NCBI GenBank assembly: GCA_964106645.2
Contig: OZ067043.1
Reading direction: 5' to 3' (one strand)
Source: Podarcis pityusensis
Taxonomy: Eukaryota
Length of the DNA: 64,000 nucleotides
The position numbers and the translations under genes were made by a program. Below, piece after piece: positions 1,930-39,739 of the stretch (position 1 is the first letter of the stretch; each line of letters starts with the position of its first letter). The notes beneath the pieces were generated by a model that saw only the letters and a list, made by a program, of their open reading frames with translations, had not been told where the DNA came from and made no database searches.

Positions 1930-3150
1930 GCACACAGCTGCGCGCGCGCGCAGGTTACACGCGCAGCGATTTCCAGCTGCGTCCTTGCTTGCGGCGGGAG
2001 GTTGACGCCTCCCCCTCCATTTCTTTGCAATGCCCGAGTCCTCCCCTCTTAGGCGGCTGGCAAGCCAGTTGTTTGTCCTCCTCGCGCGCCGAGAAGGGTT
2101 TCCCCAAAGCCTCCAAATTGCCCTCTGGCGACTCCGCCTCCCAGAGGCTCGCGCGGCTGCTTGCTCCCTAGGCGGAGCGGTGCCTACCTAGCAAGCCTCG
2201 CCTGGGCTTCCGCTTGGAAACGGAGAAATAAACGAGGAGCGGCGGCGGCGGCTCTCTCCCCGCGGCGCCGATCTACGACGCAGCCGCGCCTGAGGAGGCC
2301 GGCCAGGCTTCCCCGCTTGTGCCGCAGTGCCGTGCGCTGCCTCTGAGGCCAGCCAGGGGGCGCTGGTTGCCGGCAGCTGAGGCGGCCTCGGAGCGGGCGA
2401 GGGAGCCCAGCCAGCCAGGAGAGGAGGCAGCCTTCGCCGTCGGGAACAGGCGGGCAAGCGGGAGGCCGGGCAGGCGCAGCGCTGGCCTTCCTTGAGCTCG
2501 GGAAGAGGCCTGCCCGGGAGCCGAGCGAGGGGAGCCTCTCCGACATGCAGGCCCGGCGGCGCTCGCTGCTGCCGCCGCCTCCCGAGGTGAGTAAGCTGCT
2601 GGCCGCCTCCCGATTTAGCCGGTCTCCGCCGGGCCGCTAAGGCCGGGCATCCTCTCCCAGGCCCCTGTGGGGCGGCGTGAGAAGGGAGGCTCTCTTGGTA
2701 GGGGGCCGCCCCACGGCTCCTGAGGAGAGGAAGCTGAGGGAACCTTCCGCCAGAGAGGGTGGCCCAAAAGGGGCGAGAGGCGACATAACTGAGGGTCGGA
2801 GCGCGTTCGTCCACAGCACACCTTGGGTCAGTTCCGCCGCCCCCCAACCTTAGGGGCGCGAGTTTCCCTCCTTCCTACTAGGGATCATGAAAGCCTCGGG
2901 ACCTTGAGAATAGAGGCAGGCGAGGAGCTTCTCGTCCCGGCTTATCCCTCGCCTTGTTTGTCTGGCTTGTCCTGATGGAGCGGGTTGGGGGGAAGAGAGC
3001 CCTGCTCCCTTCATGGCAACCGGGAAGCCTTCCGCGAGGAGTTCCTGTCTTCTTGTTTATAGCGCTTCCCACCCCTCTTAATATCTCAGGGGGCGAGCGA
3101 GAAGACGTGGCAGCCCCCCGCGCCGCCGCCCCAAACAAACAAGCGAGCAA
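1930..3150. promoter_or_regulatory. ZFYVE9: CpG island / promoter of ZFYVE9
   Basis: Very GC- and CpG-rich stretch in AT-rich surroundings. It contains a (CG)n run at ~1939-1951 and the exon 1 donor GAG|GTGAGT at 2586/2587. Confidence 0.88.
2220..2586 (+). other. ZFYVE9: ZFYVE9 exon 1 (5' leader; start approximate), carries the uORF ATG at 2545
   Basis: Consensus donor GAG|GTGAGT inside the CpG island. The transcription start cannot be determined from sequence. Confidence 0.7.
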
Positions 3151-6100
3151 GCCTTCTCATACCGCTTCTGTTAATTAGTAGATTCCCCTCCCCCATACAT
3201 CCAGCCCCCCTCCCCCGTAGAGCATATGCATCGCCTTTTCACACTCCTTGCTTGTTTTTGCAGTTGTGCATTCTTGCATCCCCTTTCTTTCCTGTCCTGC
3301 TGCTTTACAGGCAGCTCCCATTTGTTCGCAGCCCAAGTTTCTCATACTGGATCTGACGGGAATATTGCTGTCAAGGTGTCCTATTTTGTGCCCGAAGTAC
3401 CTTCCCTTGCTCTGGCGTCGTTTGTTGCAGTCTGTTCACTATTTAAATAATTTGAAACGTGCCATAACTGCCGAAATAGAGCGCTTACCAGGAGGCAAGG
3501 TTACTTTTAATTGTGTGTGTTGTTGCGCTCACTTGAGTGATACTCACCTTGGTGATAAAATTCAGGTATTTTTTAGTTCTGTGGATGTGGGTAAGTAGGT
3601 CCAGATGACTGGTTGCAATGGAGGGACTGCATATCTTGTAACATGAATAACTGATGGGAATTACCTTGATAAGTTTGAATGTTTAGGTATTTTGCATATA
3701 TGTAAACAAATAGTATTTGCATGTACCGAAATAGAAGTATATATGACAACAGAATATATTTATTAATATATTTAAACAAGGTGAAGTTCCACATGTAAAA
3801 TGTCCACAAAACTTGAATGGTCTTGGGGTGTTAGTGCAGATTTTCATATCTGAACCTGCTGCTATTTATTTGTGACTTAAGATGGATGCAAAATTTCAAA
3901 GAGCCTGGTAGAGTGAGTAAGGGAAACATGGAGGTCACACTAAAGGTTATAAGGACAGCAGGTTGATTATTTTTAGCACATAGACATCTAGAAGGATAAT
4001 ATATTTATTATGTAAAATATCAAAATCTGAATATAGGTGCATGAAAGTGGAGTGCTTATTTGGATTGTACTGAAAACTGTTAGGTTGTCTGAGCTTGGCC
4101 CAACATAGATAAAACTGCTTTTATTGATCAGCAACACAAAAATGCACATATGTGGTAGTGAATTAGTGTTTGTTTCTCTGGTGTGGATTTAATATCACAT
4201 GCCTTATATCAGTATAATTTAATGGCCAGGATTTACTAAACTAAAAATGTATTTACACTTGATTAAACTTAGTACAGTAGACAAAAAACTTTAGATTTTG
4301 ATATCTGGTAAATGCTGGCACAATTAAGAGGGCTCTTCAATGGCCCAGAGGTCCTTTAAATGTTGCTCAGCTGCACAGAAGCATTTCATTAAAAAAGCAG
4401 CTCTCACTTGACCAAAATTTAAAGGGCCCCATAGAGATCTGGTTTTTTAAAAGCAACTTTACTTCACTGATAATTGCAGCATGTCTCATGGCATCAAATC
4501 TAGGCTTTGGTTTAGTCTCATGCTTGAAATCTTACTGAAATTTATTTAAAGATTGTGAATGTCTATGCTGTTTCTTTTTAAAAATGCAAAATATTTAATC
4601 CTTCCATAATCCATGAAGCTCTAAATCTAAGCAAATATAATTTAACATATAACTTAGGCAGGCTTTACATTATTTTAATAAATTAATTCTTAGTGCATAA
4701 GTAAAGGATGAACTATTCAGAGCAGATGCTTTTCAGCATGTATTTTAGCATTTGTGTTCTCATTGTTCTTTTACATTTGAAAATGAAAGTGTATATCTAG
4801 ACCACTGGGCTCCTTAGATGAAAAATGTAAATGGATGCAGAAATATATGCTGAAGTCAACAGGCAAATAATATGCCTTACTAGAGCAGGATTGCTAACAG
4901 CTAAGAATTTTTATGCCAACATCTAACTGTTTGGATAAAGTATAACTAACAATATTTATTTTGGAATAATATTTCAAAACAGGCTTACAGGTAAATATTT
5001 AGGATTGGAATAGCAGAAACAGTGATAAAGTATGTATGTATCCCTGTAGTTGTGAATGGTCCTGTGCGAAGGGTTATGGAAGAACTTTAATCTACTTAAG
5101 CTGCGGTCTTAACACACACCTACAAGGAAATAAACCTAATTAAACATAGTGGGATTTACTTTTAGGTAAATATGCATAGAATTGCTTTGTTAGAGCTGGA
5201 AGGTTATAACTTGACCAATCTGCCTCATAAGAGCCTGCTGGATGTAGTCTAGCACCCTGTCTCATAGTGGTCAACCAGCTGCTCTAATGGAAGCCCATAA
5301 GCCATGTTAAAATTATCAGTTTATACCACCTTTGTATAAGCAAAGTTATGGATATTAGGGCGCTATACTATACTTTTTTCATGGTGCTGGTATTAAGGCA
5401 GTTTTTAACCCACCAGCCCAAGCATGCTTAAGTTAGTAGTTTGTGGTTTAAAATAAAAATAAACAGTTTATTTGTTGTAAATATCCTTATCAAGTGGCTT
5501 GAAGGCAATTTTTACTCACACAGGAGACCAAGCAGCTATTTACAAGCCCTATACAAAGGTGTTGAAACAAGTCTCTAGTAATTTTGACTTCTTTTTGCTA
5601 AATGAAACCTGGGAGTAGATGCAAAGGTTTTTGGAGCGTGTGGCCACAAGTGAAATTTTGGAAACTGTTTGAAATGCTCAGTGAACAGTAGTTGCCTAAA
5701 CCTTTTAATTTATGTAAGAAGATGTGAAAGATCGAAGCAAACAGTGTTTCTCTGCCGATGGAAGGCATTTTTTATAGAACTAGAGGGCCGGCAATTCTTC
5801 CTCCCTGCCTGCTCCCCAAAATTTGCTGAGGTTTTGGGGAACCCCTTGGAGCAAATTTCTGGGGGTTTGCAGGAGGGAATTTATTTCCTTCACCAATGAG
5901 GGAACACCAATTGAATTCTATTCAAAATAATACAGTATTTAATTTTCTCCATCATTGTGTGTTTAGAAGGACTATAGGTAGCTGTCTTATACAAGTCAGA
6001 CCATTGGTCCACCAAGCTTAGTATTGCTGCTAATGGTGTCTCCAGGTAGGGCTGGAAAAGACTCCTGACTGAAACACTGGAGAGCCAGTTCCTAAAAGCC

Positions 6101-9100
6101 AAGCTCTAGCAGCTATGTAGCTTAGGATGCAGGTTTAGCTGCTACTGAAGTAGAGTCATAGGGTGTGATTGATTATGATTACATGTATGTTTATTTTAAT
6201 TCACAGTAAGTCTCTCTTCAAGATGACCAATCACAATAAGCATATGAGGAAAATAGTTGAGTCATAAGTACTGTGACCTATTTATTTGTTTAAAGTATTT
6301 ATTTCCTGCCCCTTCATTGTAAAAGCAGTGCTCAGGATATGAAAGAAACAAAATAAAATTGCATATTTTTAAACAAGCAAGATTGGGGAATATCACAGCA
6401 GGGTTGTGGGGTCAGTACAATAAAAGTGTGTGGAGTCAGTACAATAAACACATCCGTCCAACAGGCCAGACTTGCCCCAGAACACAAGTGTCTTCACTAT
6501 GTACTAGACAATTATTTGGGTGAAACAAACCTCCTTTGAGTAAGAACTTTCACAGCTTAGATGTGATCCCAAGAAGATTGTCTTCCACATCTCAACCAGG
6601 AACCTCTCTTCCACTGGTAGAACATAGAGAAGAATCTCTCCTGGAGATGTTAATGAGGAGAACTGCTCTGATTGGAGGAGGCAGTCCTTTAGATTAAATA
6701 ATAAATCTTTAGATAAAGGTAATTAACAGTAGCTGGAATTGTAAAGAAGTTTGCGCAAGTACGCTTTCCCAACGGAATATATATTGTATGTTTTTGATTA
6801 AACAAAAATAGCTTTTAAGAGCAAGACCCTAATTATATACAGACTTTGCAAGTTCCTGTCAATGGGACTTGCTTACCAGTACTTCAAAGATTCAGTACTG
6901 GTAGGTTAAGCCTATTTTGAATAATGGGAAAATAATGGACTTTTGTAGAAAAAAGAATGCTTTGCTCTCAAACTCCTTAAAGGCATCTGGCCTCAGAAGG
7001 TCCGGCCTTTGTATTCTGTTTGTAGACATCTTTTTAGTAATAGCTGTGGAAATTGAGCTTCATTAAATGACCCATTTAATTTTTTTTAAACGAAACCTTC
7101 ACTGCCTCCATCTAATTAACTAAGAAGTTGAGTGGAAGGTTTGTTTTAGTTCAGTCTGTCAGCTCCTATGGTGAGATTGTACTGCTACTTTACAAATTAT
7201 TTTTTAAAAAAACAGATTAGTTTATGTGCTGTGGAAAACAAAGCATGTATCCAGAAATGTAATAAAAGGCAGTGTGTGTTTTTGTCTTGGTGCAAATGTT
7301 AAGAAAGCTGGTCCATATGTCAGCTTCTTAGTGAGTGTACCTGAGGCAAGTACTCATGCTGCAAATTTTGCATAGTGTGTATGTGGGGGGAGGATAATTC
7401 CTGTCTGGTTCACCTCATACAGTTATCTGTCACATTTGTTTCAGTTGAGAGGAACAGCTGGCCTAGAGGTGCTGTTTTTACTGCAACTGGTACTTATAAA
7501 CTAAAATAGGAGGTCCTATATATTTTTTGTGTTTGCATACTGTTGTGACTTCTTGGATAAGCATTGTTTACTTTTTGTGGTCCATTACTTTCAATTGCTT
7601 TAGTGCAGATCTAGGCCAGTACAAAAGAAGAAGGGTTAAATGCATGTCTCAAGCACAATAGCTTTTGTTTTGTCACTGGAGTGGCAGATGGGAAACCAGA
7701 ATCTCTTACATTCCCGCATACATTGACTATGGGGGAGAGGCATTTACCATCAGCTGATGATCTTAAAATTAGACTTCATTTGAGCCTGTGCTTCTTGAGT
7801 GTTCTGTAATAAAAAGCATGTTTATTGTATCAATGCACTCTTAAAATTTTATACAGATGATTACATTTTGAGCTAATGTATGCTGTAGAATCATCTTCTA
7901 AATTGACTGAAATTCATATAAATATATGAAGTAAACCTATGAATTGGTTGTATTTTGCTTTATTGCACAGTATTCAAATACATCAATTTTCTAGATATGT
8001 TAAATGTCTCTTCTGGTATACAGCCTTTTTTGTTAGAACATCTGTAACTGTCAGAAACCTCTGTGTTGATCCCCCCCATAATATAGCAAACATAGAAATC
8101 TGTAACGTTCCCTGTAAAAGGCAGATCAAAGTGCTGTACAAATCTCCTAATAGCTGTGCCTAGCTATGAAAGACACTTCCTCGTTATAAACACTTTCATA
8201 TTTTCTGATTTCACTTTGCTGTGTCAAAATTTTGCTTTGAACTCACTCGTAGCTGTGTTCACCTAGCTGGCTGTACGCTGTTTGGTATACAATTACTATG
8301 TAGGATCAGTAGGATGAAAGCTTGTTTAGATGTTTAGTTGTCTTATGTTTGCAGTACTGTTCGCACCAACATTCTAAAATTCATAAGACTGAAGTTAATT
8401 ATTCTGCATCTCCCAGTCCTTACATCACTCCCTGTCCTCCTATTCATTCTGCTATTAAATTGAGAGTGAATATGGCATAATGATTCTTTTGTGTTGTTTA
8501 TCTCTTCACCTTGTTGTCATGGTGCCATGCCCTTTTGCTGGATATTCTGCATCCTTGGTGTACCTTGGCTCATGGGACTATTGGGTCATGAATACAGTGG
8601 TGCCCCGCAAGACGAATGCCTCGCAAGACGAAAAACTCACTAGACGAAAGAGTTTTCTGGTTTTTGAGTCGTTCCGCAAGACGAATTTCCCTATGGGCTT
8701 GCTTCGCAAGACGAAACGTTTTGCGAGTTTGTTTCCTTTTTCTTAAAGCTGCTAAGCCGTTAATAGCCGCTAAGCCGTTAATAGCCGCTAAGCCGCTAAG
8801 CCGCTAATAGCCGTGCTTCGCAGACGAAAAAACCGCAAGACGAAGAGACTCGTAGAATGGATTAATTTCGTCTTGCGAGGCACCACTGTAATCTTCATGA
8901 GAAGAAATGTTTTATGTATATGCCTGCTGCACATTGAAACGCCAAAATAAGCCTTTCCCCAGATAGCCTTTTAGTAAAATGTCTACTCAACACAAAATAT
9001 GCATAGTACTCAACTTATCACCACTTCGGCATAACATCCATCACTCATTTTCACTATATAATTGCACTTTGCTCTACTCATGCTTAACTCTGATCTAATT

Positions 9101-9758
9101 TCTCTCCACCTCTCCACATTTGGCCTCCGTAATTATTGATCATAGAATTGTAGAGTTGGAAGGGATAACGAGGATCATCTAGTCCAACCCCCTGCAATGC
9201 AGGAATCTTTTGCCCAACATGACCCTGAGAGTTTCATGCTCTACTTACTGAGGAAGGGAGAACAATGTTGAAAGTCTCTATTGATGATGGAACCAGAAAT
9301 TGGAAAAAGCAGCACAAAATATGTTGACCAGGGACTGCGTCATAGCATAGGAAAGGTAGAGAGTAGGGCTGGGTTATAAATCAGTATATCATCCCAAACT
9401 GTTTTTGAATTCACATTGTGATAACTGTTTTGACCTGGCAATATATCACGAGGGAAATTTGGACAAAACAATTGGAAACTGATGACTTCCCCATGAGGTG
9501 GCTCAGCTGAACCAAGACTTTTCTCTGCAGGAAGGGGAGAATCGCTGCTGCTGGGATTAAAATATGTAGAGCAGGGGTACTCAACCTTTTTATACCTACT
9601 GCCCACTAATGCATCTTTCTTGATGGTAAAATTTCCTTGCCGCCCACCAGTGCTCGATGGAAGGAGGATTCAGCTTGTGCCGTAGAACCCCCTACCGCCC
9701 ACCTAGAATCCTGAAACGCCCACTAGTGGGCGGTAGGAACCAGGTTGACAACCCCTGA

Positions 9759-9803
<45 letters not shown>

Positions 9804-12342
9804 TAATAATAAAATTTATTTATATCCTGCCCTCCCCAGCCGAAGCCGGGCTCAGAGCGGCTAACATCAAATGTATAACATTAACATAAAATCAGACAAT
9901 CAATTAAAATACATCCTCAAATCAGATCAGGATCAGAATAAAATCCAATCAGATGGCAACCAGATCAGATGGAAGGGGACTTCCCTCTCCCAAATCGCGC
10001 ACACACAAGTTTGGAGAGGGGCAGGCCAAGCAGCGCACCACCATCTCCCTCCTTTGCTCGCTTGCTCGCCTCCCTCCCCAGCGCCACAGTCCCTTCTCCT
10101 TGCACTGAGGGAGGCGGCAGACGTGCATCTTTGCCTCAGAGCTGCTCCCCCACTACCACCCCTGCCGCTCCCATCCCTGCTACCACCTCTTCTCCCATGC
10201 CCTCAGTTCTGTGGTCAGCTTTCCCACCCCACAATGTGGGAAAAACCGTGAAGCTAGTCAATGCTTCTCAATTCCTGTTACTCGTCTTCTGCATGTGCGT
10301 GTGTGTGCACGCATGCATGTGTTTGTCTGTCTCCCTGTGCTAAGAATCTGAATATAGGGGTGGGAGTTCCCCCTCCAGGGTCTGTCTCTTCTGCTTTCCT
10401 TCTCTATTCCACCCCATCCAGAAATTGACACAAGGTTTGGCTGCTTCTTCCTCCCCACCTCTCCCTGTCTGGGTAGCAGTTGCCAGGACATTACCCCATT
10501 TGCTTCTACATGGTTCCATCCTTATTTCAGGCATCGTTATATATCCTTATATCACAGTATGTAGCTGGTATATCACAATGTTGAAAACCAGATATCGTCC
10601 AGCCCTAGGAAAAGATCAGTGTGTAGGAATGAAGTGATTAGGACCCATTCCCATTGGCATAATTTTGAGGACTATTGTAGTCAGTGAATACACACAATGG
10701 TTCTGTGGTGTTGAAAATGTATTTTTATGTAGTGTGATGGGCACATACCCACAGCCTTGTGGTACATCTTCAGGAGAAGAAAAGACTAAGGAGTAAACCC
10801 TACACCTATCTGGAATGGAGTCTGTAAGATGATTGAATGATGTTTTGTATACCTCCTTCTGGCAACTCCTGCAGCCAAGCTGGTACCAAACATATTGCTC
10901 TGCTTTCCTTAGCAAGGCTGAGAGGGGGTCTTGTTGTCTGGGCAGCCTAGGACCTGCCCAGACTTTTGCCCCGGAGAAGTCACTTGGGTCTGCCATTTTT
11001 AAAATTTCTGCAGGCATCAAAGTATGCCAGTCAAATTGATAGTCCTGTTCTGTATGATTATTTTCCATTACACATTTGTATTTATTTGGTTTTGGTATTT
11101 AATTTCTCATGTCACTCTATTAATTTGAGTCAGAGAGGAGGGAAGGTACACTAACCAGAGGGACAGTTACCCGGTGGCTTAGTTGAATGCTTCTGTGGAA
11201 AGATGTACACCAGGGGTGTCCAAGAGACTGCGATCTACTCCCACTATAAATAAACTGACAGTGATCTACCCATTGGATTTGACCAGAGCTGTTGAGCTTT
11301 TTTTGGGGGGAGAGATCACAGTAGTTGAGCTTTTTTTAGGGAGAGAGGTCAGATCGACCGGTAGATCGCGATCAACCAGTTGGACAGGCCTGATGTACAC
11401 AATCTAGGAACAAGGATACATTGAAGAGCTCAAGTTGCAGCCCTCATGTTTTGCCATCTTCTGCGTACTTTGGGCAAAAACTTATTCCTGGTTATTTCCT
11501 TAAGACTATTTCCTCCATACTTCGGTGTTAGTCTCCAGCCAATCTGGTAAAAAGTTAATCCTATCACAGAAAACTTGGTTTATTATAATAAGAAAGTCAT
11601 GTTTCCTAATGAAAGTGAGAACCACTATAGATTAGGTGCCCAAATCTTTTATTACCTGAGATGAATAAGTACAAATTTCTGTTGTAGGCATAAGCAAGTG
11701 TTACCAATTAAGCTAGTGAGAAAGTGGCAAGTCTTTTCAAGTTTGTATCTAGCAACTTATTGTGATGCCTTTGTAGTCTTAGGGCTTGTTTACTCTTCTA
11801 AAGTTGCTTTTGACTGTGTTTCGGGAAGCACATTTACACAAGGATGCATGGCCTCATAAAGAGACTAGATGCAGTTCAGGACACTGATAATAAACTAGTT
11901 TAAGCCCATCTTACCTCCTGCCTCTTCATGAGATCAGATGTGTGCTGTCTACACCTTATTTGGGAAAGGATAGTTGATAGTTCATCTGTGTAACTGCTGT
12001 GGAGATTTGGGAGCATGTGTTGGAGACAAGGAATAATTGGTATCTTTTTGGTGGGGGGCTTTCTTTGGTGGCCACTTAAATGTAGTGGAGCGAAGGTTAT
12101 GTTATCAAATTGTTTTTAATAGGTTTCAGAGGGGGAAAATCTTACCCTAACTTGGCTTTCAAGATGAGGCAGGCTGAAAATAGCTAAACTACATACAACT
12201 AATAGCAGCTTTAGGAATTCTAATGTGGTGTTTGTTTCATTTTTAGGATCAAGCAGAATATACAGATTCAATTCAACTAGCTGATTGGGCAGTGTATATC
12301 ATGGATAGACATTGGTTCATTCGTTTCTTTATGCATGTGTAG
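2545..12342 (+). CDS. Spliced upstream ORF, join(2545..2586,12247..12342), 45 aa MQARRRSLLPPPPEDQAEYTDSIQLADWAVYIMDRHWFIRFFMHV
   Basis: ATG 2545 plus 14 codons to a phase-0 donor, then 31 more codons in frame in exon 2 to TAG 12340-12342. Confidence 0.5.
8595..8888. mobile_element. Tc1/mariner-pogo (Tigger-like) MITE
   Basis: TA-flanked. TIRs CAGTGGTGCCCCGCAAGACGAA / TTCGTCTTGCGAGGCACCACTG. Internal CGCAAGACGAA repeats. Confidence 0.9.
9138..9252 (-). mobile_element. POM/Squam2-type tRNA-derived SINE, internally deleted
   Basis: Reverse complement matches the 41344-41490 copy (GGGCAAAAGATTCCTGCATTGCAGGGGGTTGGACTAGATG...CCCTTCCAACTCTACAATTCTATG). Confidence 0.8.
9572..9757. mobile_element. 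186-bp hAT (Charlie-type) MITE, copy 1
   Basis: TIRs CAGGGGTACTCAACC / GGTTGACAACCCCTG. Near-identical inverted copy at 60921-61106. Confidence 0.9.
9759..9812. repeat. (AAT)n microsatellite, next to a reverse L2-tail-type fragment (~9813-9970)
   Basis: Direct reading. Followed by TTTATTTATATCCTGCCCTCCCC...GGGCTCAGAGCGGCTAACA. Confidence 0.85.
11211..11392. mobile_element. 182-bp hAT MITE with perfect 8-bp TSD
   Basis: TIRs CAGGGGTGTCCAA / TTGGACAGGCCTG. ATGTACAC at 11203-11210 and 11393-11400. Confidence 0.9.
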
Positions 12343-12351
12343 GAGAAAAAG
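12247..12351 (+). other. ZFYVE9: ZFYVE9 exon 2 (5' leader, 105 nt)
   Basis: Acceptor TTTTTAG|GAT and donor AAG|GTAAGA. Resembles the mammalian ZFYVE9 leader exon as I recall it. Confidence 0.75.
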
Positions 12352-14165
12352 GTAAGAGGATGGCAAATGACAGTATACATCTGGAATATTTGAATTAAGA
12401 GAGCGCCTTTAAATTTGCATCCTTGGTATGCTTCTTATATTGCAGTCCTAAACAGATCAGAAATTTATTTATTTATTGAGCTTCTGGCCTGCTGTTCCTT
12501 CTAGGGCAACAAACAACCAAGCAGGAAAACATATTTTCACCCCAGAGCCTTCCACAATAAGAGTTATGAATCAGTCTAATTTCTAGTAATGTTTCTAGGG
12601 TGTTTTGTTTAAAGCAAGGACAAGGAAGCTGTGGCCCTCAATATATTATTACTTTTATCATTGCTGGCCACAATAGTGTTCTGCAATAGAATCATGCATT
12701 TTTTAATTTAAAGTTTAGAGTTTCCTGTTTGTAAGAAAATTATTATGGGTGGCGACCATTTTGGGCGTGATTGCTGATGCGCTGGTCCTTTTGAACCCAG
12801 AAGAAGGTGGAGGGGTGGTGCACTTATATGTGCTATGCCGACATACACAGGTTAGAAGTGGATCGCCCACATGAAATGGTTGCCATCTGTACTGTAAATT
12901 TAACAACTTTTAGCTGTGCTTTTGCAGTAAATGGGTGCTGTGAATATTACATACTTACTAATTGGATTGTGAACTGAAGTGTATTTAAGGCCAAGTTTGC
13001 CTGCTTTTTCTTTAGACTTCTGGTTTTTTCCTTGAAACCTAGCTGTGGAATCAGGCACTGTCACTAAGTTCTTGATTTAATGTATTTTGGTTGCCTTCTC
13101 CAGCACAAATGTTTGCAGGATAGATTTGGGATAAAGTTTTAGAAAGGTGCACATAACAAGCTAGCTTTTTTGTTTCACTTATGAGGTTACATACGATATA
13201 TTGAATGACTGGGTTGTCTGGTTCATTGTCTGCATGCAAGGCCTCCTATTTTGCATACCAGCACAGACTTCTTCAATGTTTATTTGGATGGTGGCATTAA
13301 AAATTGCAGGCTTTGCTTCTGGTTAAAGAATTGGTTGATCCCTTGACTGTGTGGAGGAACAGGTCAGTTGTGTGTACTACACTTTATCGTTACAGTGTTA
13401 ATTTTAAAATTCTGTGTTCAGATTTCCTTCCCTATATAATAAACACTGTTGTAAGATATTCAAATCTCTCTTTTAATTTCTGTAAGGTCCTAGATCTTGA
13501 ATGAGTCATATCAGTCACATTGCATTTAAGACTTTAGTGTGAAATAGTATTACTTCCTTGACTAATATGTTGGCTTGTTTTGAGTTGTTGTTCCAGTCCA
13601 CCAGGATTATGTGGTTGGCAAAGCTTAGGCTAAATGCTGTATCCTGTCATGCATTAATCTAGGTTAGATATTGTAGATGCTGCAGATTCAAGAATGCAAA
13701 GCACAATAGACAAAATATTATTGAATTAACAGGAGTCATCTTTTAAAATGTCCATTATATAATTTATTTGACTGAAATGGTCAAGAGCCCATACTACAGT
13801 AAAGCTCACTAGATAGCTTTGGACAAGTCAGTGATTTTCAGTATAGCTTTGTTTCCTGTGGAGTTGTTAAATGTTCTATGGAAAAGAAAGGAATATATAT
13901 TTGTATAAAGTGAAGATTTCTGAACTGTCACATCTACTCCTCTTTGCAATTATTGTTTCACCTCATCCATTCAAAACTTTTTTATGTAGAGATGGTTTAT
14001 AAAGTTACTTGGCCATTGAGGAGTTACCAAGATGATATATTTATTAGGTAACATCTCCCAATGCGTCCTTGTAGTTCAAATCTGTTATACGGATGAGAAA
14101 TTACTGGTAGCATTCTTGGGTCAAGCATAGATAATGAGTTGTGTGTATGGTCGGAAGACTGATTA

Positions 14166-14334
14166 CCATATTTTTCCATTTATAAGATGCCCCCATATAT
14201 AAGACACCCCTATTTTTGGGGACTCCAAATTAAGAAAACACCCCTCAGCATTACCCATGTATAAGACGAGCCCCAATTTTAAACCTAATTTTTTGGTTTA
14301 AAAACCCCTAGTCTTATACACGGAAAAAATATGA
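14166..14334. mobile_element. TA-flanked Tc1/mariner-type MITE
   Basis: Imperfect TIRs CCATATTTTTCC...TATAAGA / GTCTTATACACGGAAAAAATATGA with repeated TATAAGAC motifs. Confidence 0.65.
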
Positions 14335-14499
14335 TAATTTTTCCTGATTTGATACTTTAGTCACTACTTATTGAAATCCTGCTGATTTCTGTCTGAGTTA
14401 GTAACTGGATGCAACCCTGAGCCTGAGTGCCCAGGTTTCTGCAGTGGCCAGGAGTGCATCTGCATAGCTAAAGCCAGTGTGCTAGCTGTGCCCATTCCT

Positions 14500-15090
14500 G
14501 GAGATGTCTGATCTGCCCACAGTGACACACACCTTAGTTACATCCCATTTGAATTACTGTAACATGCTTTACATGGGTCTGCCTTTGAAAAGTGCTAGAA
14601 AACTTTTAAAGGGCCCAAGGAGCTCCACTGGCTACTGGTCTGTATCCGGTCACAATTCAAAGTGCTGGTTGTGACCTATAAAACCTTATACTGCTTAGGC
14701 CTAGGCTATCTGAAGGCCCAGGGTATTTTCCCATACAAACCTATTTGGGCTCTTGAGATGTTCGAGGTGGCCCTTCTCTCATTCCTGCCACGCTCACAGG
14801 CACCTTTTATGGGAACGCGGGAGAGGCTGCTCCCAGACTTTGGAACTCCCTTCCCGGTGAACCTAGACTGAACTCTGTCCTTGTGGCCTTCCTCTGGCAG
14901 GTGAAGATTGTTTTATTCCAGCAGGCCTTTGGGAGCTGATTGCTTTTAAGGAAAGGGTTTTTAATAGTGTTGTGCTGTTTTTACCGTCTGTATTTTAATA
15001 GATTTATTTTTTACATTGTTTTAATTCCATTGTTGTTTAATTACTTTTCAACTATTATTGATTATAACTTTTTAGCTTTCTGTGTTTTAG
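14500..15090 (+). mobile_element. Degenerate L2 LINE 3' fragment
   Basis: L2-like remnants (TACTGTAACATGCTTTACATGGGTCTGCC, CTCCACTGGCT...CAATTCAAAGTGCTGGTTGTGACCTATAAA) and a T-rich tail. Confidence 0.7.
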
Positions 15091-15625
15091 CTGTGTTTGT
15101 ACAATCTGGACAAATCTAGTTTTTATTCTTTTGTTTATTTATTCCCCACATTTTTCCCAGAACCAGGGCTCAAGGCAGCTTACAAAAAATTAAAACAACG
15201 CTAGGCGATGCAGAAGGTGGGGCCTAGATTAGGACTGATGCCATCACGTGATGGCACTGGGGCTCACTGAAGATCCAGTAGCTCCTGAGCCAGCTTAGTG
15301 CCCTTCCCCCTCTCCCACTAGAGCACACACACCTGGTCTGGTGGGTAGAATGGGGGAGCTCTGCTTTGGTAGAAGGAGTAGATACTAATGGAGGCTGGCA
15401 GTGTTAGGCAGTAAATTGGTTTCAGTAGTTGATACATATTAATTTTGTTTCAAAGTTATTAATAATTGCCATTGTGAAGCTCACTGAATGCGTTCATTTA
15501 GGAAGTCCTGCAATGTTTCATATTTTACATAGGATCTTAGTTTTAGTGGATACATAAAAGAATAGATTGGTACATTTTCTATCATCATGCCAGTCATCCT
15601 GCTGTCATTTAACCAAATTTATATA

Positions 15626-15866
15626 CAGTGGTACCTCGGTTTACAAACTTAATCCATTCTGGAAGTCCGTTCTTAAACCGAAACCGTTCTTAAACCAAGG
15701 TGCGCTTTCCCTAATGAGGCCTCACACTGCCGTTGCCCTTCCACCGTTCGGATTCCATTCTTAGACAGAGGTAAGGTTTGCAAACCGGGACACTATTTCT
15801 GGTTTTGCAGAGTTTGTAAACTGAATCGTTCTTAAACCAGACTGTTCTTAATCCAAGGTACCACTG
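15626..15866. mobile_element. Tigger/pogo-like MITE (CAGTGGTACCTCGG family)
   Basis: TA|CAGTGGTACCTCGG ... CCAAGGTACCACTG|TA. Confidence 0.88.
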
Positions 15867-16766
15867 TACTACTTAACTCAAACAAGAACTCTCTAAGTTG
15901 CTTACAAAAGACTTTTATTTCCAAAAGTTAGCTAAGAGTGTGATTCCAAGTGAGTTGTAGGTTGGGGTGTGAAGTGACAGATTGTATTCTATTTTTAATC
16001 CTATGTTGGCTAGCACTGGCAAGGTTGGAGGTGTAAGGACAGACTTGTCTTCTTCTTGGCTCCCAGGGAGCCTTTTCTTTTTTTAAAAGAATCACCCCAT
16101 TGGTTCTAATGGAGAGGGAAATTAGATATACCAGTTCCAGAGTGGCATGGATGCAGACCTGATCCTGTCTCGGCCAGTCATACTCTGCCCTTGGAGTGCC
16201 TTGTTTCAGGGCCTAACATTGATTACTGCTAGTGAAAATAGAACTGTGCCTATGGATCTTTCCCACATAACGTCCCCCCTCTCCAATGGAGACATCTTCA
16301 CTGCCATCAGAGGGGCTCCTCCATGCAACCCTAACCCCTTCCATCCATTAGATCTGTGAGTTAGGATTCCCCTTCCCCTTCCCGTCTTTAGAAAGAAAAG
16401 GAACAATATGATTTTATTAGGGTTTTTAAAAATATTAATAATAATAATACTTGCAGCAAATAACTGATAAAACCAAAATAAATCCTTAAGTCCCTTCTTA
16501 GTCTAGAAGGCTTCTAATTTATTTGTATATCTGGCTGATATGGATGAGGCATTAGGAATTAGAGGATCAATACAGTTTCATCATCACAGTTTTGTAATAC
16601 TGGGAAATGCTTTTGATTTTATAGGAAATAGTCAAACTAGCTTAAATTTTAAGCTTGGTAATAATCTCTAAATCTTGTGATGGGACATTGGAATATTGCT
16701 AGAAGTTCATAACTGGCTGTCTGCTTGACAGGTTCAGACAAGGAGCTGGGTGGCATTTCCTGACAA

Positions 16767-16836
16767 ATGGAGAACTATTTCCAGGCAGAGGCTTTTAACC
16801 TTGATAAGGTTTTAGATGAATTTGAACAAAATGAAG
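16767..16836 (+). CDS. ZFYVE9: ZFYVE9 exon 3, coding part (exon starts 16732)
   Basis: [23 protein letters not shown]. In-frame TGA 6 nt upstream of the ATG. Donor AAG|GTGAGT. Confidence 0.95.
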
Positions 16837-19800
16837 GTGAGTAACTTTTGTTAGGGCTGGAGATGCAAACTAATATCTGGATCTGTGACTCTGGTTGTAT
16901 TTCTTTGTATTTCCTGTTCCATTGTAACTAACATCTGTTATGCATTTGCTGGGAATAAAAGTCTGAAAAGGATACTGAGAAATCTACAATTTTTTTCTAG
17001 GTAGAAACAGTTAAAATAATTGTCTTAAAAATTTCAGTGATTACATGAATGATATCCCTGTATTAATTGGGTGTCAAACATTGGCACAATTGCATAGATA
17101 TATAATTCACAGGTGAGAATTGCTTGCAGCTAGAGCTAGTACAGATAAGATTAGCTGTCTGTGCATAAGAAGTAATCAGCTTCCATCCGCTCTTTTGCCA
17201 CCCAGAATGCACATACTTCCAGATCAATCCCCCATTTTACACTAAGTTCAGTGTTACATTTCATTGTGCTCCTAGTTATCACAAGTCTTAACTAGCTTTT
17301 ACAACACTGCTTAATTGTCTGTTTCCTATACCTATGACTCTGCTAACTGAAGGCTAAAATTTGCACATAATACTAACATAAACTGTGGCTTAGCACAAAT
17401 GAGCAAATGTGTGGGTCCAGGGGATTGTGACCACTGCTGTTTTTTCCTGCTCCTGCTGCCACTGTGCTACCCAGGACTAAGCCATAGTTCGGCTTAGCCT
17501 TGCATTTGAACCCAGGCTCATGGTCTCTCTCTCCTCCAGATGAACCAGGAGTGGTAAACCAAGAACAAATATTGGTTACAGCTTGTTGTTTGTGTTAGCA
17601 TTTGGATTACATCACAAAATAATAATAGTAAACTCCCTGAGTAATCACAAATAACTAGGGGGGAATTCAGCTTCACGCAGTTACAAATATTCCATCTGTA
17701 CAAGCGTATCAGTTTCCCAGATGGAATGATCCCTTGCTCTTGTGTGTTGTTTTGGGGATTCTCCCAACCCCTTGAGCAAATTATAGATGTTGCATGTGTG
17801 GGAGGGGAAAGCCCTGTTGTGGAAGCCTTCCTCTAATGGGGTTTGGTAGGTGTATTCCTCCCTAGGTTCTGTGGCTTGTTGTAGGAATACAAGATCTTAT
17901 CAACTTACTAACTACATTACTAAATGTGTACATTGAGGAGGGAGAAGAAAAAATGGCATTCACACAATACTGAAACATCAAACATGTTTTGTAAAATTAA
18001 ATTCCCAAGTGGTTTGTTTGTCTGTGATTGCTGTATTCCCTGTTACGTGATTTGTATGTAGCTAAGTCACTTTCCCCCTTATACTATGCTACTTCACTGT
18101 TCTGCTGTTATGAATGCCTGCTAAAACATGGATAGGATTTATCATTGTATAATTTGTACAAGTAGGGCATTCTCTGGCATGAAAAGTGTAACAATGGAAA
18201 CAGGCAAACCCAAAAAGAGCTTGGCTGGATTAGATGAAAGGTCTGTCAAGTTCAGCATCATGTTTCTCACATAAACCAAAGAGGTGCCTTTGGGGAGATT
18301 ATAAGTAGGCTATTTCCACTCCCACTTTTTCTCCCCAAGACCTAGTAATGTGGTATACTGCTTCCAGACATGGAGGCTTCATATAGTCATCATAACTAAT
18401 AGGCATTGTCAGACTAATTGATGGAAGGTCTAATCCCATTTTTAAAGCCATCACAGCTAATGGTCATCTTGTGGCACCACATGCCATTAATAAATAAATA
18501 GCTTTTCTAAGGAAAAACACAACCTTTGGTGTTTAATGACTCCAACTACAGAAGCAATCAAAGTGCTATTTGAGAGTTAATGTGATTTGGTTACCTTTTT
18601 TGGCCAACATTTATTCACTAGTTGGGCTGATAGAAATTGCTTTCTTAGGGCTTGTCCACGCTGTAGTGTTCTTCTGAGAAACGAAAATAGTTTTAGTCTG
18701 TGGGTATAACTCATAGACTAATTGCTTTCCTGAGTGGTTTCCCTTTTTATGGTGCTAAATGATGTATTTGCAAAAAGCAGATATGATTCCTGGATTGCTG
18801 TTTGAGAAAGCACTGCAGCAGTCTGAAGGGCGGATGCTGGAGGAAGGACGGTTGGAGAGGCAAAAAGCAGCCCCTTTTGGGGAGTGTGAGGACTAAATTT
18901 TGAGAGGGTTTTTGCTTTTGCTGTTGCTGGCATTGAGCATTGTGTGCCAAGAAGATATCATCGTCAGCCACATGTGGCTGAATTGGGTGAATCTGTCTCT
19001 TTATCCAGCCGTTCTTCAGTGGGTGGAGAAGTTGCAGTTCTTCATTTATTATTATTTTTTATATTTACTAAATTTGCATACTGCCCTTCATCCACCGATC
19101 TCAGGGTAGTTCACCTGAATGCTGTAGTGACAGATTTTGCTCCCCAGAAAGGGTCTCTGCTTCCTCCCCAGTCACTACTGCAGCTGAAGAGTTCTTAAAA
19201 CACTCACCACCTTAAACTGGTATAGCACTGCAAATTTGTTACCATATGAATACCAAAATAGTTTTGATTGGTTTATGTTTGTGTGCATGTATAAAAGGCA
19301 GTAGGTGCACTTTGATGAAGTATTTATATTTTGGCCATGGTTTAGATTGCAAACTGGCAGCCAAGCTAGATGATATTAGAAATGCATGTTCTCCTTTAAT
19401 GTGGCCTGCTTTTAAAAAATAAATGGGGGGGGGGGGAGGTGGAGGGTGTATGAACCCTCCACTGCTATTTGCCCTGAGGGAGAAGCTGCCATTGGTGACA
19501 GTGGCAACTCTCCTTTCTGGTAAATAGCACCATCTGTATCGTGTGTATAAAAAGAACCATGGTCCGGGGGAAAGGGCCAAGCTCCAGTTTTTAAGCATTG
19601 TAGCTCCAGTCCTGATGAGCTTCTTAATGTTTGCTATTCCTCCCTCCCAAAAAAAGACATGAAATGCAACCATGCATTTCTCATTTTGTCTAGTTTTAGC
19701 CAGAACAGTATATACAGTTGGCAGCAGTATACTAACTAATGGACTTTCTGTGCTTGGGCCCTATTACCTCTACAGAGATTTTCAGTATAGTATGTGATTT

Positions 19801-22800
19801 TTTTTATTATATGTGGAACAAACATGCATTTATTTAATTTTACATTATCTCTGTTTTGATTTTGGCAACTGGAGAATGTATAAAGCAGTTTATTCCAGTG
19901 TTTCCGCAGTGTTCCTAAGCTATATAGTTATGTAAAACACTTAAGAATTGCTATACAGTTAACAATGCCATCTACAAAGGGAACAGTAACTAGAAATGCT
20001 TTTGCTTCCACAATATTTTTCAGTATAAGAAGCGATTTGCAATTATTTTAATCTCATTTATGCTTACGATAATTCTGTGAAGTTAGCTAAAGCTGCAAGA
20101 TGATGTCTTGCCCAAGGTCACCCAATTAGCTTTAAGATTAAACAGGAATTTCAATGTGCTTTTGAGTCTCCAAAATTGACATTCAGTTCAGTTTGCTGTG
20201 CTATATTGTCCCCAGCTTCTTTGAATAACTTATATGATGTCAATTCTTGTTTGGGTTTTACATGTTTGTCTTAATACTGTTGTTTTCTACTTCCTATGGT
20301 TTGCAGCTAAATATATCAATCAAGATGTTAAGATTACGTATTCCCATAAAATGTGTATTATAAAGAAATATTTCTGTTCCAGGCCTTAGAGACTAATCAA
20401 AACCAGAAATCTAACTTGGGAGCCAAACTGATAATCTAGAGAAATGTATGACTGCATTTTCATCTTTTTGAATTTGATTTAAAAAATAGCAGTTGTGGGA
20501 GTACCTAATCTGCATTGGGTCTCCAGCACAGGGTAAGGAATATTTTAATACTTGTCTCTGTGCTTTTTTCCTCACAAAATTTCTCCCTTAAGCTACTATT
20601 CACTCTGGAATGAAAAACATATGACACCCATTTGTGTGTTCTTCTAGGGCAAATAGCAACTTATGGGTGGTTTTCATTGGGAAACTTCAAGAGGTAAAGT
20701 GTTAAACCAACCCACACTGTGGTTCTGATTTAGACTGAGACCTTTGTGACTGTAGAACTGCATACATTTCAAAAGATGGAAATACAGTAATTTTCATGCA
20801 AACTGGGATCTTGTTTGATCCTGGGTTTAAGCTAGTTTAACTATAATTGCTTCTTGCAAAATAAGATAATAATTATTGTTACGCAATACACTTGTAATGT
20901 AGTACCCACACAGGGGTGAAGGATTGCTGCACTTCAGGGGGTTGGACTAGATGGCTCTCGTGGTTCCTTCCAACTCCGTAATTCTGTGGTCTACAGTTCT
21001 TGGAATAGTAGCGTATTGACCCGAATATAAGCCGCACCCGAATAAAAGCCGCATCTTTAAAATTCATGGGGGTGGGGGGAGGAAAAAAGATAATACCTGA
21101 ATATAAGCTGCTCCCTTAAAATTCTGCAGGCATTCACACCCATTCCATTTTACCATATGTCTGTTTCAGTAGCAATATCATAAAAGCCAATTTTTGTAAG
21201 GTCGCAAATTTAAGCCACACTTTAAACTTTTCACGGACAGAATTTGGAAAAAAAGTGAGGCTTATATTCAGGCCAATACAGTATTATGTATTTTCCTTTG
21301 ATATACAAACATTTGAACTTCTTGTGCAAAGTACAAGTTACATATGCTGAATTTATTGCATATTGATTTAAGTTACTTATCTTTTCAGATGAAGCCATTT
21401 CACCTACTTTGTTGGATGCAAAGTGGAATAAGATCCTAGATCCTCCTTCCCATCGGCTGTCTTTTAACCCAGCTCTGGCCAACGTGAATGAATCCACAAT
21501 TCCTAATGAGTGTCCGCAAAAGTTGAAGTCATTCTCCCTGTCTCAGTTAGCCACTACATCAACAGGAGGAGGAGATTGCTGTTCTAATGGAAAGAATCTT
21601 AATATAAGACAAGAAAGCCCAAACATGTGGATTGATGATCAGGCAGCAACAGATGATCATCAGCTAGTTAAGAGAAATAGCAATCGAAATGCCCTGTACA
21701 ATTTGATGGATGAAGAAGGAAGGAAAAAGAAACCAGAGGAAAAAAACGTTCTTGTAGTAGCAGTCATGCATAACTGTGACAAAAAAGGACTGCAAAATGA
21801 TTTGTTAGATTGTAGAAATTACAGCAATTCCCCCAGAATGGATACTGTTAGCTTTACACTGGATAATGAAACCCAACAAACTGATCACATTGATGTTACT
21901 GTAAACGGGTCCATTGAAAAAGATTCAGATACTGAAAAAGATGCAGTACAAGCAAACAGGCTACCTGCAGAAGAAGATTTTTTCAACCATTGTAGTGTTG
22001 CTGCTTCTGCCTGCTTATCCAGTGGATATTCTTCTCGTTTAAAGGAGAATGATAATTCAAATAAAGACCTTCATTTCTCAGAAACTGCAGCAGCAGGGAT
22101 GAATGTAATTACATTGCAGAGGCCACTTGGCCCTAGTGTTAAAATACAGCAAAGCTGTGCATCAGGTGAGGGTTTTGATACTGATGCTGTTGCTCAGCTG
22201 GAAACTAGAAACTGTTTACCTAGTTCACGTAATGGTGGTTTCTCCACAGAGGTTTCTGTTGCAGAACCAGCAGCCCAGCCATTTCAGTCAGGGATATGTG
22301 AGGTCTCTGCAACTTGTCAGCCAAATACGCTTGAAAGTGGTAATCACGGTGAAAGTTCTGACAGACATTTGGCCTCTATGGATGTTGGTGCTGCTGACAA
22401 TGAAGCTGACAAATATGAAAAAATACTCAGCTCAACTGAATTGCTCAGCACGACAGTTTGTTTATCAGAATCTCAGGAGATGGCAAATGGGGAACTGACT
22501 AAAGAAAATCAGATCAGTAATGAGCAAACACCTGGGGAGGATGAAACACTGTTGCATACAGCAAAGCGGGAGGAAGCATGTAGTAGTAATGGAGATAGCA
22601 GCGATGGCATGACAGTAGCAAGTCAGGACTTAAAGGGAGCATATATGGATGAGTTTGAAGATTCCAGCCCCACTGATGTCATGAGTACATCGGCATCAAG
22701 TGCTCTGCTCAATTGTTGTGATTCCTATGGAATACAGAACCCAATTCTTGCTCATATTCCAAAGACTTTACCCTCCAAGGAAGACTCAGTGACTGAGGAA

Positions 22801-37800: not shown

Positions 37801-39698
37801 TCAGAATCCAGTGGGGGTTCTCCACTTGTGAAAGGACCGTGGTTTTTGTTGTGCAAATGGAACTTCTTCCTGTGCAAGTGGAACTTCTCTGAGCATGTCT
37901 GGATACAAGCCATGGTGTTATTTTGATCTTCCTACTGTTGATATTTTTCTAAATTTGATTTTCTAGCTACCAAATGCAAGGTTTTTGGAGTAAACTTCCC
38001 CATAGATATGTTTGACTCTGAGATCTTTTTTCCTACTTTCTTAGTGTACCCGTGCCCACTTTTCAGTGTCAGATTTCGTAAGCCATTGTTTGGAGAGACT
38101 GGACACACAATTATGAATCTTCTTGCAGTAAGTGATGGTTACAAGATTATTTTGCAAATAGAAAAATGTATGTGTCCTGTTCACTCACCTAATTTATATG
38201 CACTGTTATTCTGAAAATATAATAATACGTAGATTTCTTAAATCTAGATATGATGGAGTAGTATTTATTTATTTATTTATTTATTTAACAAATTTATATA
38301 CAGTTTTCAAGCAAAAAATTATTCTCAAAGTGTTTTACAAACTACATACAAAAACGTAAACAAAAAATATAATTTAAAACTGACTAAAACATCCATATGA
38401 TTTCAAAAGAGAACACTAAAGATCCTTTTTTTTTTAACATCTCTGAACTGGACCATCATATAGCTGTAGGCACACTACTGTTAAAAAAAACCACCTAAGC
38501 ATTTCATCTGTACCTTTATACCAAGGAACCGCAGTTTAGTGTCCTGTAATTTTTTTTGTATGCTAGAGAAAGAGCACAGGTGTGCTCTAGGACAGAAAGA
38601 ATACCTTGGAGTGATGCTGATGCCCCATAGCATTTAAGGAGCTTAAACAGGCACCTGTTCTAAATGTGAAGTGTGTTCCAGGAAGGAATATAGCAGAAGT
38701 GGGTGAGTGGGTGGGAATGGGAGATTATCAGGTGCTCCTTTCCTGTTCTTGTTCACCCAAAGGCAATTTCTATTTTCTCACAGCTAAACGTCCCCAGCTT
38801 ACTCTGATACACATTATGTCCCATGAAACTCATTGGTACAATATCAGTTCTTTCTACTTAGTGTTGTTTTCAGAGCCCCTACTGATGGGTTAGGTTGCTC
38901 CTGAAACAAAGTGTATTTTTCAATATTTTAAACAAAATAATGAGTAAAGAATACTGCTTATTGCGAATGGATTTAGTCTTTTTATTGTAATTTTTCAAAG
39001 TTGACCCATAGTTCTTGCGTTGCTGAAACTCAAATGCCAGCAGCAATTGTGATTTTCATTGTTCTGTGTACTGACAGGACTTCAGAAATTACCAGTATAC
39101 ATTGCCAGTTGTCCAAGGCTTAGTGGTTGATATGGAAGTGAGGAAAACCAGCATCAAAATTCCCAGCAACAGATACAATGAGGTATGTAGTGTGAATAAA
39201 TATATAACACACATGTCCTAGAAGCATCACAGTGATTCTTCTATTGATGAAATATTGCATGAACTAGGAGTTACTTGATGGGTGAATAAAACTGGATCGG
39301 TGAGACTGGGTTTCAAATTCTTGCTCAGCAAGCAACTGAGGGAGCAGCTTTGGTTAAGCCATGATAGCTCTTTACCTTGTCTCCCATCTGAAAAATTATC
39401 AATAATGACATACCTTAATATCTCATGTTGATATGGCAGATCAGGTGTAAACTGTCTTGCATGTTCTTCTCCTCCAAAATATTGTATGCCATAAATCATA
39501 TATTTCTTTTGGAGGACTAAAATTTTAATTCAGTGATTGTTAATTTTTTTTTTCAAAGAGCCAAGAAACAGCATTGCAAATAGTTTAATTTGGCCCTATT
39601 CCTGGGGTGGGCACTCTACAGCCATTGGCCTGATTTTATGTGATCGTTGGCAAGCATCGCCTCAGACCCTTGGCAAGAGTGAAGTACCCCCTATGAAA

Positions 39699-39739
<41 letters not shown>

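Follow-up and report, generated by a model that had tools for sequence, protein, structure and literature searches.

Conserved upstream open reading frames (uORFs) form a common kind of leader element. ASDURF (ASNSD1) and MIEF1-MP are bicistronic uORF microproteins with strong amino-acid constraint and recognisable folds. The uORF of the ZFYVE9 (SARA) leader analyzed here resembles them in being spliced, AUG-initiated and deeply conserved in its leader position, and differs from them by a negative mammalian PhyloCSF score, a drifting C-terminus and the lack of a family match.

A second type is represented by ATF4, in which the first uORF has 3 codons and the overlapping inhibitory uORF is conserved. 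With ATF4-type delayed reinitiation (PMC2172506) the ZFYVE9 leader shares a short uORF of strong context before the main start and, in the lizard, an overlapping out-of-frame ATG. Its frames, however, are longer, with 13 and 45 codons, and the overlapping ATG, which is weak and has no human equivalent, is located within the uORF; a very short first uORF together with a conserved downstream inhibitory uORF, as in ATF4 and GCN4, was not found in the ZFYVE9 leader. A third case is TRPM7, whose leader contains two conserved vertebrate uORFs for which repression and Mg2+ sensitivity were measured (PMC4227784). As conserved vertebrate uORFs by which the main frame for a signalling protein is repressed they may serve as a model for the mode of ZFYVE9, although repression was measured for TRPM7 while ZFYVE9 is known here from its sequence, and the two ZFYVE9 starts share both frame and stop.

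We consider it rather probable that the spliced uORF, which is common to lizard and human, restrains the translation of SARA in cis and that its position counts for more than its peptide. The human uORF is a catalogue entry already, and nothing points to an unusual mechanism.

Anatomy and splicing of the leader

The window, i.e. the whole stretch of DNA that was analyzed, comprises 64,000 nucleotides of Podarcis pityusensis. It contains the following features:

2001..3000, unstranded: CpG-island promoter region holding exon 1; GC 0.68, CpG observed/expected 0.64-0.98 in 200-nt bins
2454..2586, + strand: 3' part of exon 1; covered by contig X2 (2454-2579) and joined to exon 2, donor GAG/GTGAGT; transcript start at or upstream of 2454
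2545..2586, + strand: first part of the uORF; ATG (G at −3, C at +4) and 14 codons with Arg-Arg-Arg, Leu-Leu, a Pro run and Glu
2587..12246, + strand: intron 1; 9,660 nt, GT-AG, repeat-rich
12247..12351, + strand: exon 2, a 5' leader exon of ZFYVE9; 105 nt, single copy in genome searches
12247..12342, + strand: second part of the uORF; 31 codons and a TAG stop; human counterpart 96 nt
12301..12342, + strand: inner uORF in the same frame; 13 codons, Kozak context strong (A at −3, G at +4)
12335..16798, + strand: ORF of an out-of-frame ATG; weak context (T at −3, T at +4), 27 codons, running across the main ATG once spliced
12352..16731, + strand: intron 2; GT-AG
16732..16836, + strand: exon 3; 35 leader nt, then the main ZFYVE9 ATG at 16767 (C at −3, G at +4), 70 coding nt
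16767..47800, + strand: ZFYVE9 (SARA) coding exons; tblastn of the protein P0004 tiles 17 pieces; FYVE domain PF01363

The first-pass annotation had described a 45-codon uORF across exons 1 and 2, and on recheck of the sequence all of its coordinates were correct. The same translation was obtained, with 14 codons in exon 1 and 31 in exon 2 followed by TAG. The exon 1 donor after 2586 lies 42 nt from ATG 2545, in phase 0, the intron given as 9.7 kb has the length listed above, the inner ATG 12301 has the strong context ascribed to it, and 9 + 35 = 44 spliced nt separate the stop from the main ATG. An AUG and an in-frame stop thus precede the main AUG on the spliced mRNA.

In the region 1900-2586 the only ATGs are those at 2030 and 2545. 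Exon 2 is preceded by the acceptor TTTTTAG, ending before 12247, and stays open until TAG 12340-12342. It contains two further ATGs of weak context that were absent from the earlier annotation, one at 12331 (in frame with the uORF, 3 codons) and the out-of-frame ATG at 12335. A search of the own genome with exon 2 gave one match by DNA and one by protein. The encoded ZFYVE9 protein is 99% identical to that of Podarcis muralis, and the N-terminus starting at the main ATG matches at 22 out of 23 residues in 7 out of 8 records from birds, crocodilians, turtles and mammals; the remaining record is shifted by an N-terminal extension. Another contig contains an orphan copy of the exon 1 end that is 82% identical and lacks 1 nt at a point five bases within the uORF (a single case).

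Evidence for the junctions comes from Logan contigs whose kind (“RNA?”) was guessed by the tool and which stem from organisms B, C and D, i.e. from species related to Podarcis pityusensis. The junction 2586^12247 predicted by the first-pass annotation is supported by 3 out of 4 exon-2 runs with a loose end reading as the end of exon 1, and all four have a loose end reading as the start of exon 3. If at least 31 letters are demanded for bridging, as in the rule of the tool, X2 alone bridges the junction of exons 1 and 2, where X7 reaches 27 letters and X11 26; the junction of exons 2 and 3 is bridged by both X2 and X4, with 26 letters for X7 and 21 for X11. All four contigs cover exactly exon 2 without a single difference, which says little because organisms B, C and D are close relatives. 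Contig X2 (one run, related species) matches exon 1 with 3 differing letters and continues into exon 2; this transcript therefore reaches upstream of ATG 2545. This contig speaks against a transcription start downstream of that ATG, which the annotation had named as an argument against the uORF; one must keep in mind that contigs cannot show the start site itself.

Counterparts in human, rodents and birds

By its sequence the lizard element is the orthologue of a catalogued human uORF and is not new for human. The human counterpart is c1riboseqorf100, a 41-aa entry of a Ribo-seq catalogue labelled “conserved” (PMC10032668, supplementary file 2, row 583). It lies in the same gene and shares the phase-0 intron position, an ungapped exon-2 part of 31 codons, the inner Met at codon 19 and the terminal Val-stop. 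The first-pass annotation had described the human leader as equivalent, and this proved to be right according to the catalogue, which assigns 30 nt to exon 1 and 96 nt to exon 2 and places Ile-Met at codons 18-19 of exon 2 and Val-stop at 31-32 (PMC10032668). The difference between 41 aa in human and 45 aa in lizard is due to four extra Pro in exon 1 of the lizard. The primate-specific uORF c1riboseqorf99 listed upstream in human is not present in the lizard, and the overlapping weak ATG 12335 is impossible in human, where the codon is Arg (by eye).

The human inner ORF of 13 aa is listed separately as ENST00000371591_44_83 (PMC10032668, supplementary file 5, row 105), with 540 P-sites, 78% of them in frame, and the age “vertebrata”. 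At the rat counterpart 168 P-sites (heart) and 123 P-sites (liver) are given, and the inner ORF is tabulated with 9 aa in mouse and 8 aa in rat compared to 13 (PMC10032668).

Outside mammals, the owl gene model P0069 carries the exon-1 part with 9 out of 11 residues matching, and 2545..2586 is the best-scoring place for it among 1,858 CpG-island stretches. The exon-1 part of the uORF differs by whole codons throughout, with 10 in human, 11 in owl and 14 in lizard, and with one and three additional codons in organisms D and B. The human catalogue entry and the owl exon-1 part together are an argument that conservation among amniotes holds, human being the one full orthologue (compared by eye) and the owl gene model the one partial orthologue. 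The earlier claim of an amniote-conserved uORF thus stands for the architecture shared with a human orthologue listed as translated and for the owl exon-1 part; for rodents the stop would come earlier if the tabulated lengths are right. The human entry gains depth through those of lizard and owl.

The owl model fuses the exon-1 peptide to SARA, and this raises the question of whether ATG 2545 could be an alternative start of SARA, reached by an in-frame join 2586^16773 at an AG inside exon 3. Such a join would be in frame in the lizard window as well. We regard this as very improbable: the fused form occurs in 1 out of 152 ZFYVE9 records, 141 of which begin at the usual Met, P0069 is a single “unnamed protein product”, and the best 120 of 517 matches to its first 40 residues contain no second fused case. 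All four exon-2 contigs use the normal exon-3 acceptor, although contigs chosen for exon 2 cannot show skipping of exon 2.

Counterparts were also searched for in other sources. In metagenome host DNA 52 loci were retrieved by a degenerate pattern and none was exon-2-like, with at most 32 out of 84 free positions identical (51 scored). In the 30 kb upstream of the paralogue ZFYVE16 (G000:C11:30817875) neither uORF exon had a significant match (best blastn E 0.43; short scattered tblastn matches only); a diverged uORF may still lie there.

Retention of the frame and drift of the peptide

In the lizard 19 out of 41 aligned residues (46%; by eye) are identical to the human peptide, and 12 out of 31 in the exon-2 part. 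Of the last 12 residues only 2 match, and conservation of length and C-terminus was not found. In a neutral simulation of 20,000 runs, with divergence set to the observed identity of 12/31, without indels and with features chosen after the fact, exon 2 keeps the open frame, the stop and the inner ATG in a fraction of 0.0285. The architecture of the uORF therefore appears to be kept beyond neutral expectation while the peptide drifts, with the reservation that this fraction refers to features selected post hoc.

The retention could have another cause, namely that splicing or other needs at the RNA level preserve exon 2 and the exon 1 end, the uORF being translated merely as a by-product without selection. 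The best-kept residues flank the splice sites and lie within an unmethylated CpG island, the stop lies in the purine-rich end of exon 2 only 9 nt from the donor, and the other two frames of exon 2 contain just 1 and 2 stops. Such an origin is nevertheless improbable in our view, as lizard and human have both retained the two ATGs along with frame and stop, without any gap over 96 nt (the simulated fraction covers the exon-2 features alone), and the orphan exon-1 copy (a single case) carries its deletion within the uORF. Unselected upstream ATGs of strong context, furthermore, tend to be purged. A special RNA fold was found neither in exon 1 (z 0.52) nor in exon 2 (z 0.45), and the leader exons had no match in Rfam; a structured RNA was rejected on these grounds.

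The peptide itself could also be of importance. The uORF might encode a functional microprotein or a nascent peptide, the N-terminal part of which would act on the ribosome or on a partner, making the mRNA bicistronic. The candidate element consists of a basic cluster, Leu-Leu and an acidic stretch, Glu-Asp-Gln, that spans the splice junction. Lizard and human diverged about 320 My ago, and 17 out of 29 N-terminal aligned residues are still identical (by eye), compared to 2 out of 12 at the end (Fisher p 0.019, with the split chosen after the fact); for exon 2 alone the values are 10 out of 19 and 2 out of 12 (p 0.065, split again post hoc). The owl matches and the whole-codon lengths of exon 1 in human, owl, lizard and organisms D and B point in the same direction. 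The identity of the uORF peptide to human is comparable to that of the SARA coding linker (45-49% against four mammal records). This equality and the better-kept N-terminal part leave room for constraint on the peptide. In addition, the catalogue records one mass spectrometry study for the 41-aa peptide of human and a primate PhyloCSF score of +9.58 (PMC10032668).

The same catalogue gives a PhyloCSF score of −443.81 for mammals, the rodent frame ends sooner, and for the 13-aa peptide no detection is listed, neither by shotgun nor by HLA mass spectrometry (PMC10032668). Radical substitutions occur (Trp-Gly, Tyr-Asp, Trp-Arg, Arg-Cys), and the 19 exon-2 mismatches between lizard and human have a BLOSUM62 sum of −12 (by hand) compared to −12.4 ± 7.0 under neutrality. 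The mean of −0.63 per mismatch is not separable from that of the SARA linker (−0.27 to −0.44). The length changes in the lizard fall within triplet repeats of CTG/CCG, for which slippage in steps of 3 nt is expected in any case.

Searches for homologues used the 31-aa exon-2 part only and were limited in sensitivity. They gave no Pfam family, two chance matches in PDB (E 0.5-0.7) and, among 1.84 billion representatives, three matches without a true homologue (P0001 and two repeat proteins). P0001 was rejected, being the same genomic stretch with the intron included and TAG read as Gln; a search with it returned only itself. No hydrophobic or membrane helix was predicted in the uORF peptide (best 19-residue mean 0.55). 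A C-terminal PDZ ligand was dismissed because the human class 1 motif is absent from the lizard peptide, and polyproline stalling as a conserved mechanism because lizard has four Pro, owl two and human no run.

The “bicistronic microprotein” of the first-pass annotation is thus weakened by the mammalian score, the 8-9-aa rodent inner ORF and the neutral-looking substitutions, and retains the better-kept N-terminal part, for which reason we still allow a peptide role a small chance. Any peptide function, if it exists, would lie in the first 30 residues and not in the 13-aa tail. It is likewise rather unlikely, though conceivable, that a bicistronic ZFYVE9 mRNA dates back to early amniotes, with a 41-48-aa microprotein or a peptide acting on the ribosome, a functional N-terminal half (Arg-Arg-Arg, Leu-Leu, Glu-Asp-Gln) and coupling to SARA output. 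If true, this mRNA would be an unrecognised control point in TGF-beta/Smad signalling.

A candidate brake on SARA translation

A brake in cis agrees best with the leader as a whole. Two in-frame uATGs, the first of moderate and the second of strong context, have a common stop; the main ATG, suboptimal in its context, follows 44 nt later. Most scanning ribosomes would initiate at either uATG and terminate at the shared stop, and SARA would be made by ribosomes that reinitiate or leak past both uATGs. Reinitiation would be more plausible after the frame of 13 codons than after that of 45. A point against the brake is that 45 codons are long for efficient reinitiation. The ZFYVE9 mRNA could also be exposed to nonsense-mediated decay.

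On endosomes, SARA brings Smad2/3 to the TGF-beta receptors. A brake kept from lizard to human would therefore amount to a control of dosage in this pathway, holding the amount of this endosomal TGF-beta/Smad scaffold low or buffered. The tuning of SARA levels put forward by the first-pass annotation would be of this kind and is likewise a proposal.

In open-licence main texts no functional study of the ZFYVE9 uORF was found, no paper mentioned a ZFYVE9 sORF or microprotein or c1riboseqorf100, and SARA together with UTR led to general reviews only. The combination of ZFYVE9 with uORF or ribosome profiling gave one such text (PMC12859497). If the brake is real, variants in the ZFYVE9 5' UTR might have consequences. 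As an indirect hint at repression, a variant in this 5' UTR, taken from a neurodevelopmental cohort, increased the reporter protein made from a truncated construct (PMC12859497).

The ZFYVE9 leader and its upstream reading frame

The window spans a lacertid lizard's entire ZFYVE9 (SARA) gene: the Podarcis muralis ZFYVE9 protein covers 16767-47800 as 17 pieces, and the large exon, which matches that protein at 99%, carries the FYVE domain. From 2400 on, the leader holds four upstream ATGs (2545, 12301, 12331 and 12335), the first of which opens a spliced upstream ORF (uORF) that stops 44 spliced nt before the main ATG. The ATG, donor, exon 2, stop, main ATG and spacing proposed by the first-pass annotation all hold on checking the sequence.

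Features of the leader (strand as presented)
~2001-3000: CpG island, contains exon 1
2545: uORF ATG (G at -3, C at +4), 14 codons to the phase-0 donor at the exon 1 end (2586)
12247-12351: exon 2, adds 31 uORF codons, then TAG at 12340-12342
12301: ATG in strong context (A at -3, G at +4), inner in-frame start
12331: ATG in weak context, same frame as the uORF
12335: ATG in weak context, other frame, 27 codons, overlaps the main start
16732: exon 3 start; main ATG at 16767 (C at -3, G at +4)

A LINE-type reverse transcriptase fragment at 1081-1929 (PF00078, E 1e-37) abuts the edge of the CpG island.

Splicing and conservation

Splicing was followed in contigs of four runs from related organisms, presumed to be RNA although no run is recorded as such. 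Contigs of all four cover exon 2 exactly, with the exon 1 end upstream in three of four and the exon 3 start downstream in four of four. If 31 matching letters are required to bridge a junction, run X2 qualifies at both junctions and X4 at that of exons 2 and 3, the other runs reaching 21-27 letters; the X2 contig alignment also includes 2454-2579. The 2586^12247 junction that the first-pass annotation wished to see checked is found in related-species contigs, in X2 by the 31-letter rule. Compared to the window, the exon 1 end is longer by 9 nt in X2 and by 3 nt in run X11, both inside CTG/CCG triplet repeats; this leaves the reading frame intact but is weak evidence of selection.

The human entry c1riboseqorf100 in ZFYVE9 (PMC10032668, supplementary file 2) lists 41 aa from 30 nt of exon 1 and 96 nt of exon 2, class "conserved", one MS study and PhyloCSF of +9.58 (primates) and -443.81 (mammals). 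In file 5 the human inner 13-aa ORF has 540 P-sites, of which 78% are in frame, is dated to "vertebrata" and has no MS detection; its counterparts measure 9 aa in mouse and 8 aa in rat, the rat one having P-sites in both heart and liver. Compared by eye with this human entry, 7 of 10 residues of exon 1 and 12 of 31 of the gapless exon 2 are identical in the lizard, and inner Met and stop codon coincide. The owl gene model P0069 (Bubo scandiacus) begins with 11 residues, nine of which match the lizard exon 1 peptide; when the 1,858 stop-free stretches in the CpG island were scored, 31 was reached at the uORF alone, and the next places without in-frame overlap scored 17. The conservation in human that the first-pass annotation had proposed is therefore right, and the human case was already on record. 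By these comparisons, the lizard uORF is real, spliced, conserved across amniotes and the orthologue of the catalogued human uORF.

Tests of constraint on the frame and on the peptide

When exon 2 was mutated neutrally to the observed identity, using substitutions only and features picked post hoc, open frame, stop and inner ATG were jointly retained in 0.0285 of 20,000 runs; the uORF architecture therefore appears selected. A natural control is provided by an orphan 234-nt copy of the exon 1 end and donor in the lizard's own genome (G000:C15:43569179-43569411; 82% identical), where the uORF has lost 1 nt after 2549 and differs at 8 of 41 nt, four of these differences being of CpG type. This single case shows the speed of frame breakage once unconstrained. 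That the uORF is a by-product seems to us quite improbable. The copy neighbours a 241-nt piece copied from C10:43969560-43969802, and the locus looks like a patchwork of captured GC-rich pieces, with retroelement ORFs lying a few kb away.

Regarding the encoded peptide, adding up BLOSUM62 by hand over the 19 exon 2 residues that differ between lizard and human gives -12; the 808 matching neutral runs average -12.4 +/- 7.0. Pointing the other way, total identity is 46%, equal to that of the SARA coding linker compared with four mammal records (45-49%), and conservation is higher over the initial 29 aligned residues (17 identities) than over the last 12 (2 identities; p 0.019, post hoc). Family, structure and database searches gave no homologue of the 31-aa exon 2 part, and no second copy of exon 2 was found in the lizard's own genome. 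The published mammalian PhyloCSF and the fact that the frame is shorter in rodents favour a cis element over a peptide, the selection comparison being one of two sequences; a peptide function appears unlikely. Exons 1 and 2 fold no better than shuffles, and no Rfam match was obtained. The database "protein" P0001, on a vertebrate contig, is a gene-calling artefact of exon 2 and intron read with TAG as Gln.

Probable translational control and possible alternative transcripts

We consider it probable that the uORF is a cis-acting brake on SARA translation, repressing it in cis. Scanning ribosomes would mostly begin translating at one of two upstream ATGs, 2545 or the strong-context 12301, and, from either, terminate 44 nt short of the suboptimal main ATG; SARA would then be made by reinitiation, likelier after the short frame, or by leaky scanning. 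Applying the exon-junction-complex rule of decay to the stop, which lies 9 nt upstream of the exon 2-3 junction, the complex of that junction would be displaced, while later ones would stay and could trigger decay. Translation of the human and rat uORF is listed in published ribosome-profiling tables (PMC10032668). A functional study of the ZFYVE9 uORF was not found in open-licence main texts; a ZFYVE9 5' UTR variant is described as raising protein in a truncated reporter (PMC12859497).

ATG 2545 could instead provide an alternative SARA N-terminus, which is very unlikely, a uORF-fused form occurring in 1 of 152 ZFYVE9 records. In P0069 the exon 1 peptide is fused to SARA via an AG inside exon 3 (16773), probably a prediction artefact; a 2586 to 16773 join would also be in frame in the lizard window.

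The paralogue ZFYVE16 (G000:C11:30817875) shares the short first coding exon with ZFYVE9, and counterparts of the uORF exons are not detectable within 30 kb upstream of it. Five lacertid records (P0146, P0150-P0153) carry a shorter SARA isoform starting at an internal Met of the large exon, which suggests transcripts without exon 3 (16732-16836); the uORF would be unaffected. Skipping of exon 2 (2586^16732) would leave a uORF of 41 codons that overlaps the main ATG out of frame, in principle a stronger repressor. The beaver record P0133 shows SARA with an 18-aa N-terminal extension. Assuming 35 leader nt in its exon 3, as in the window, its ATG would lie 19 nt before the exon 2 end, near the lizard out-of-frame ATG 12335 (17 nt) but in the frame of SARA.
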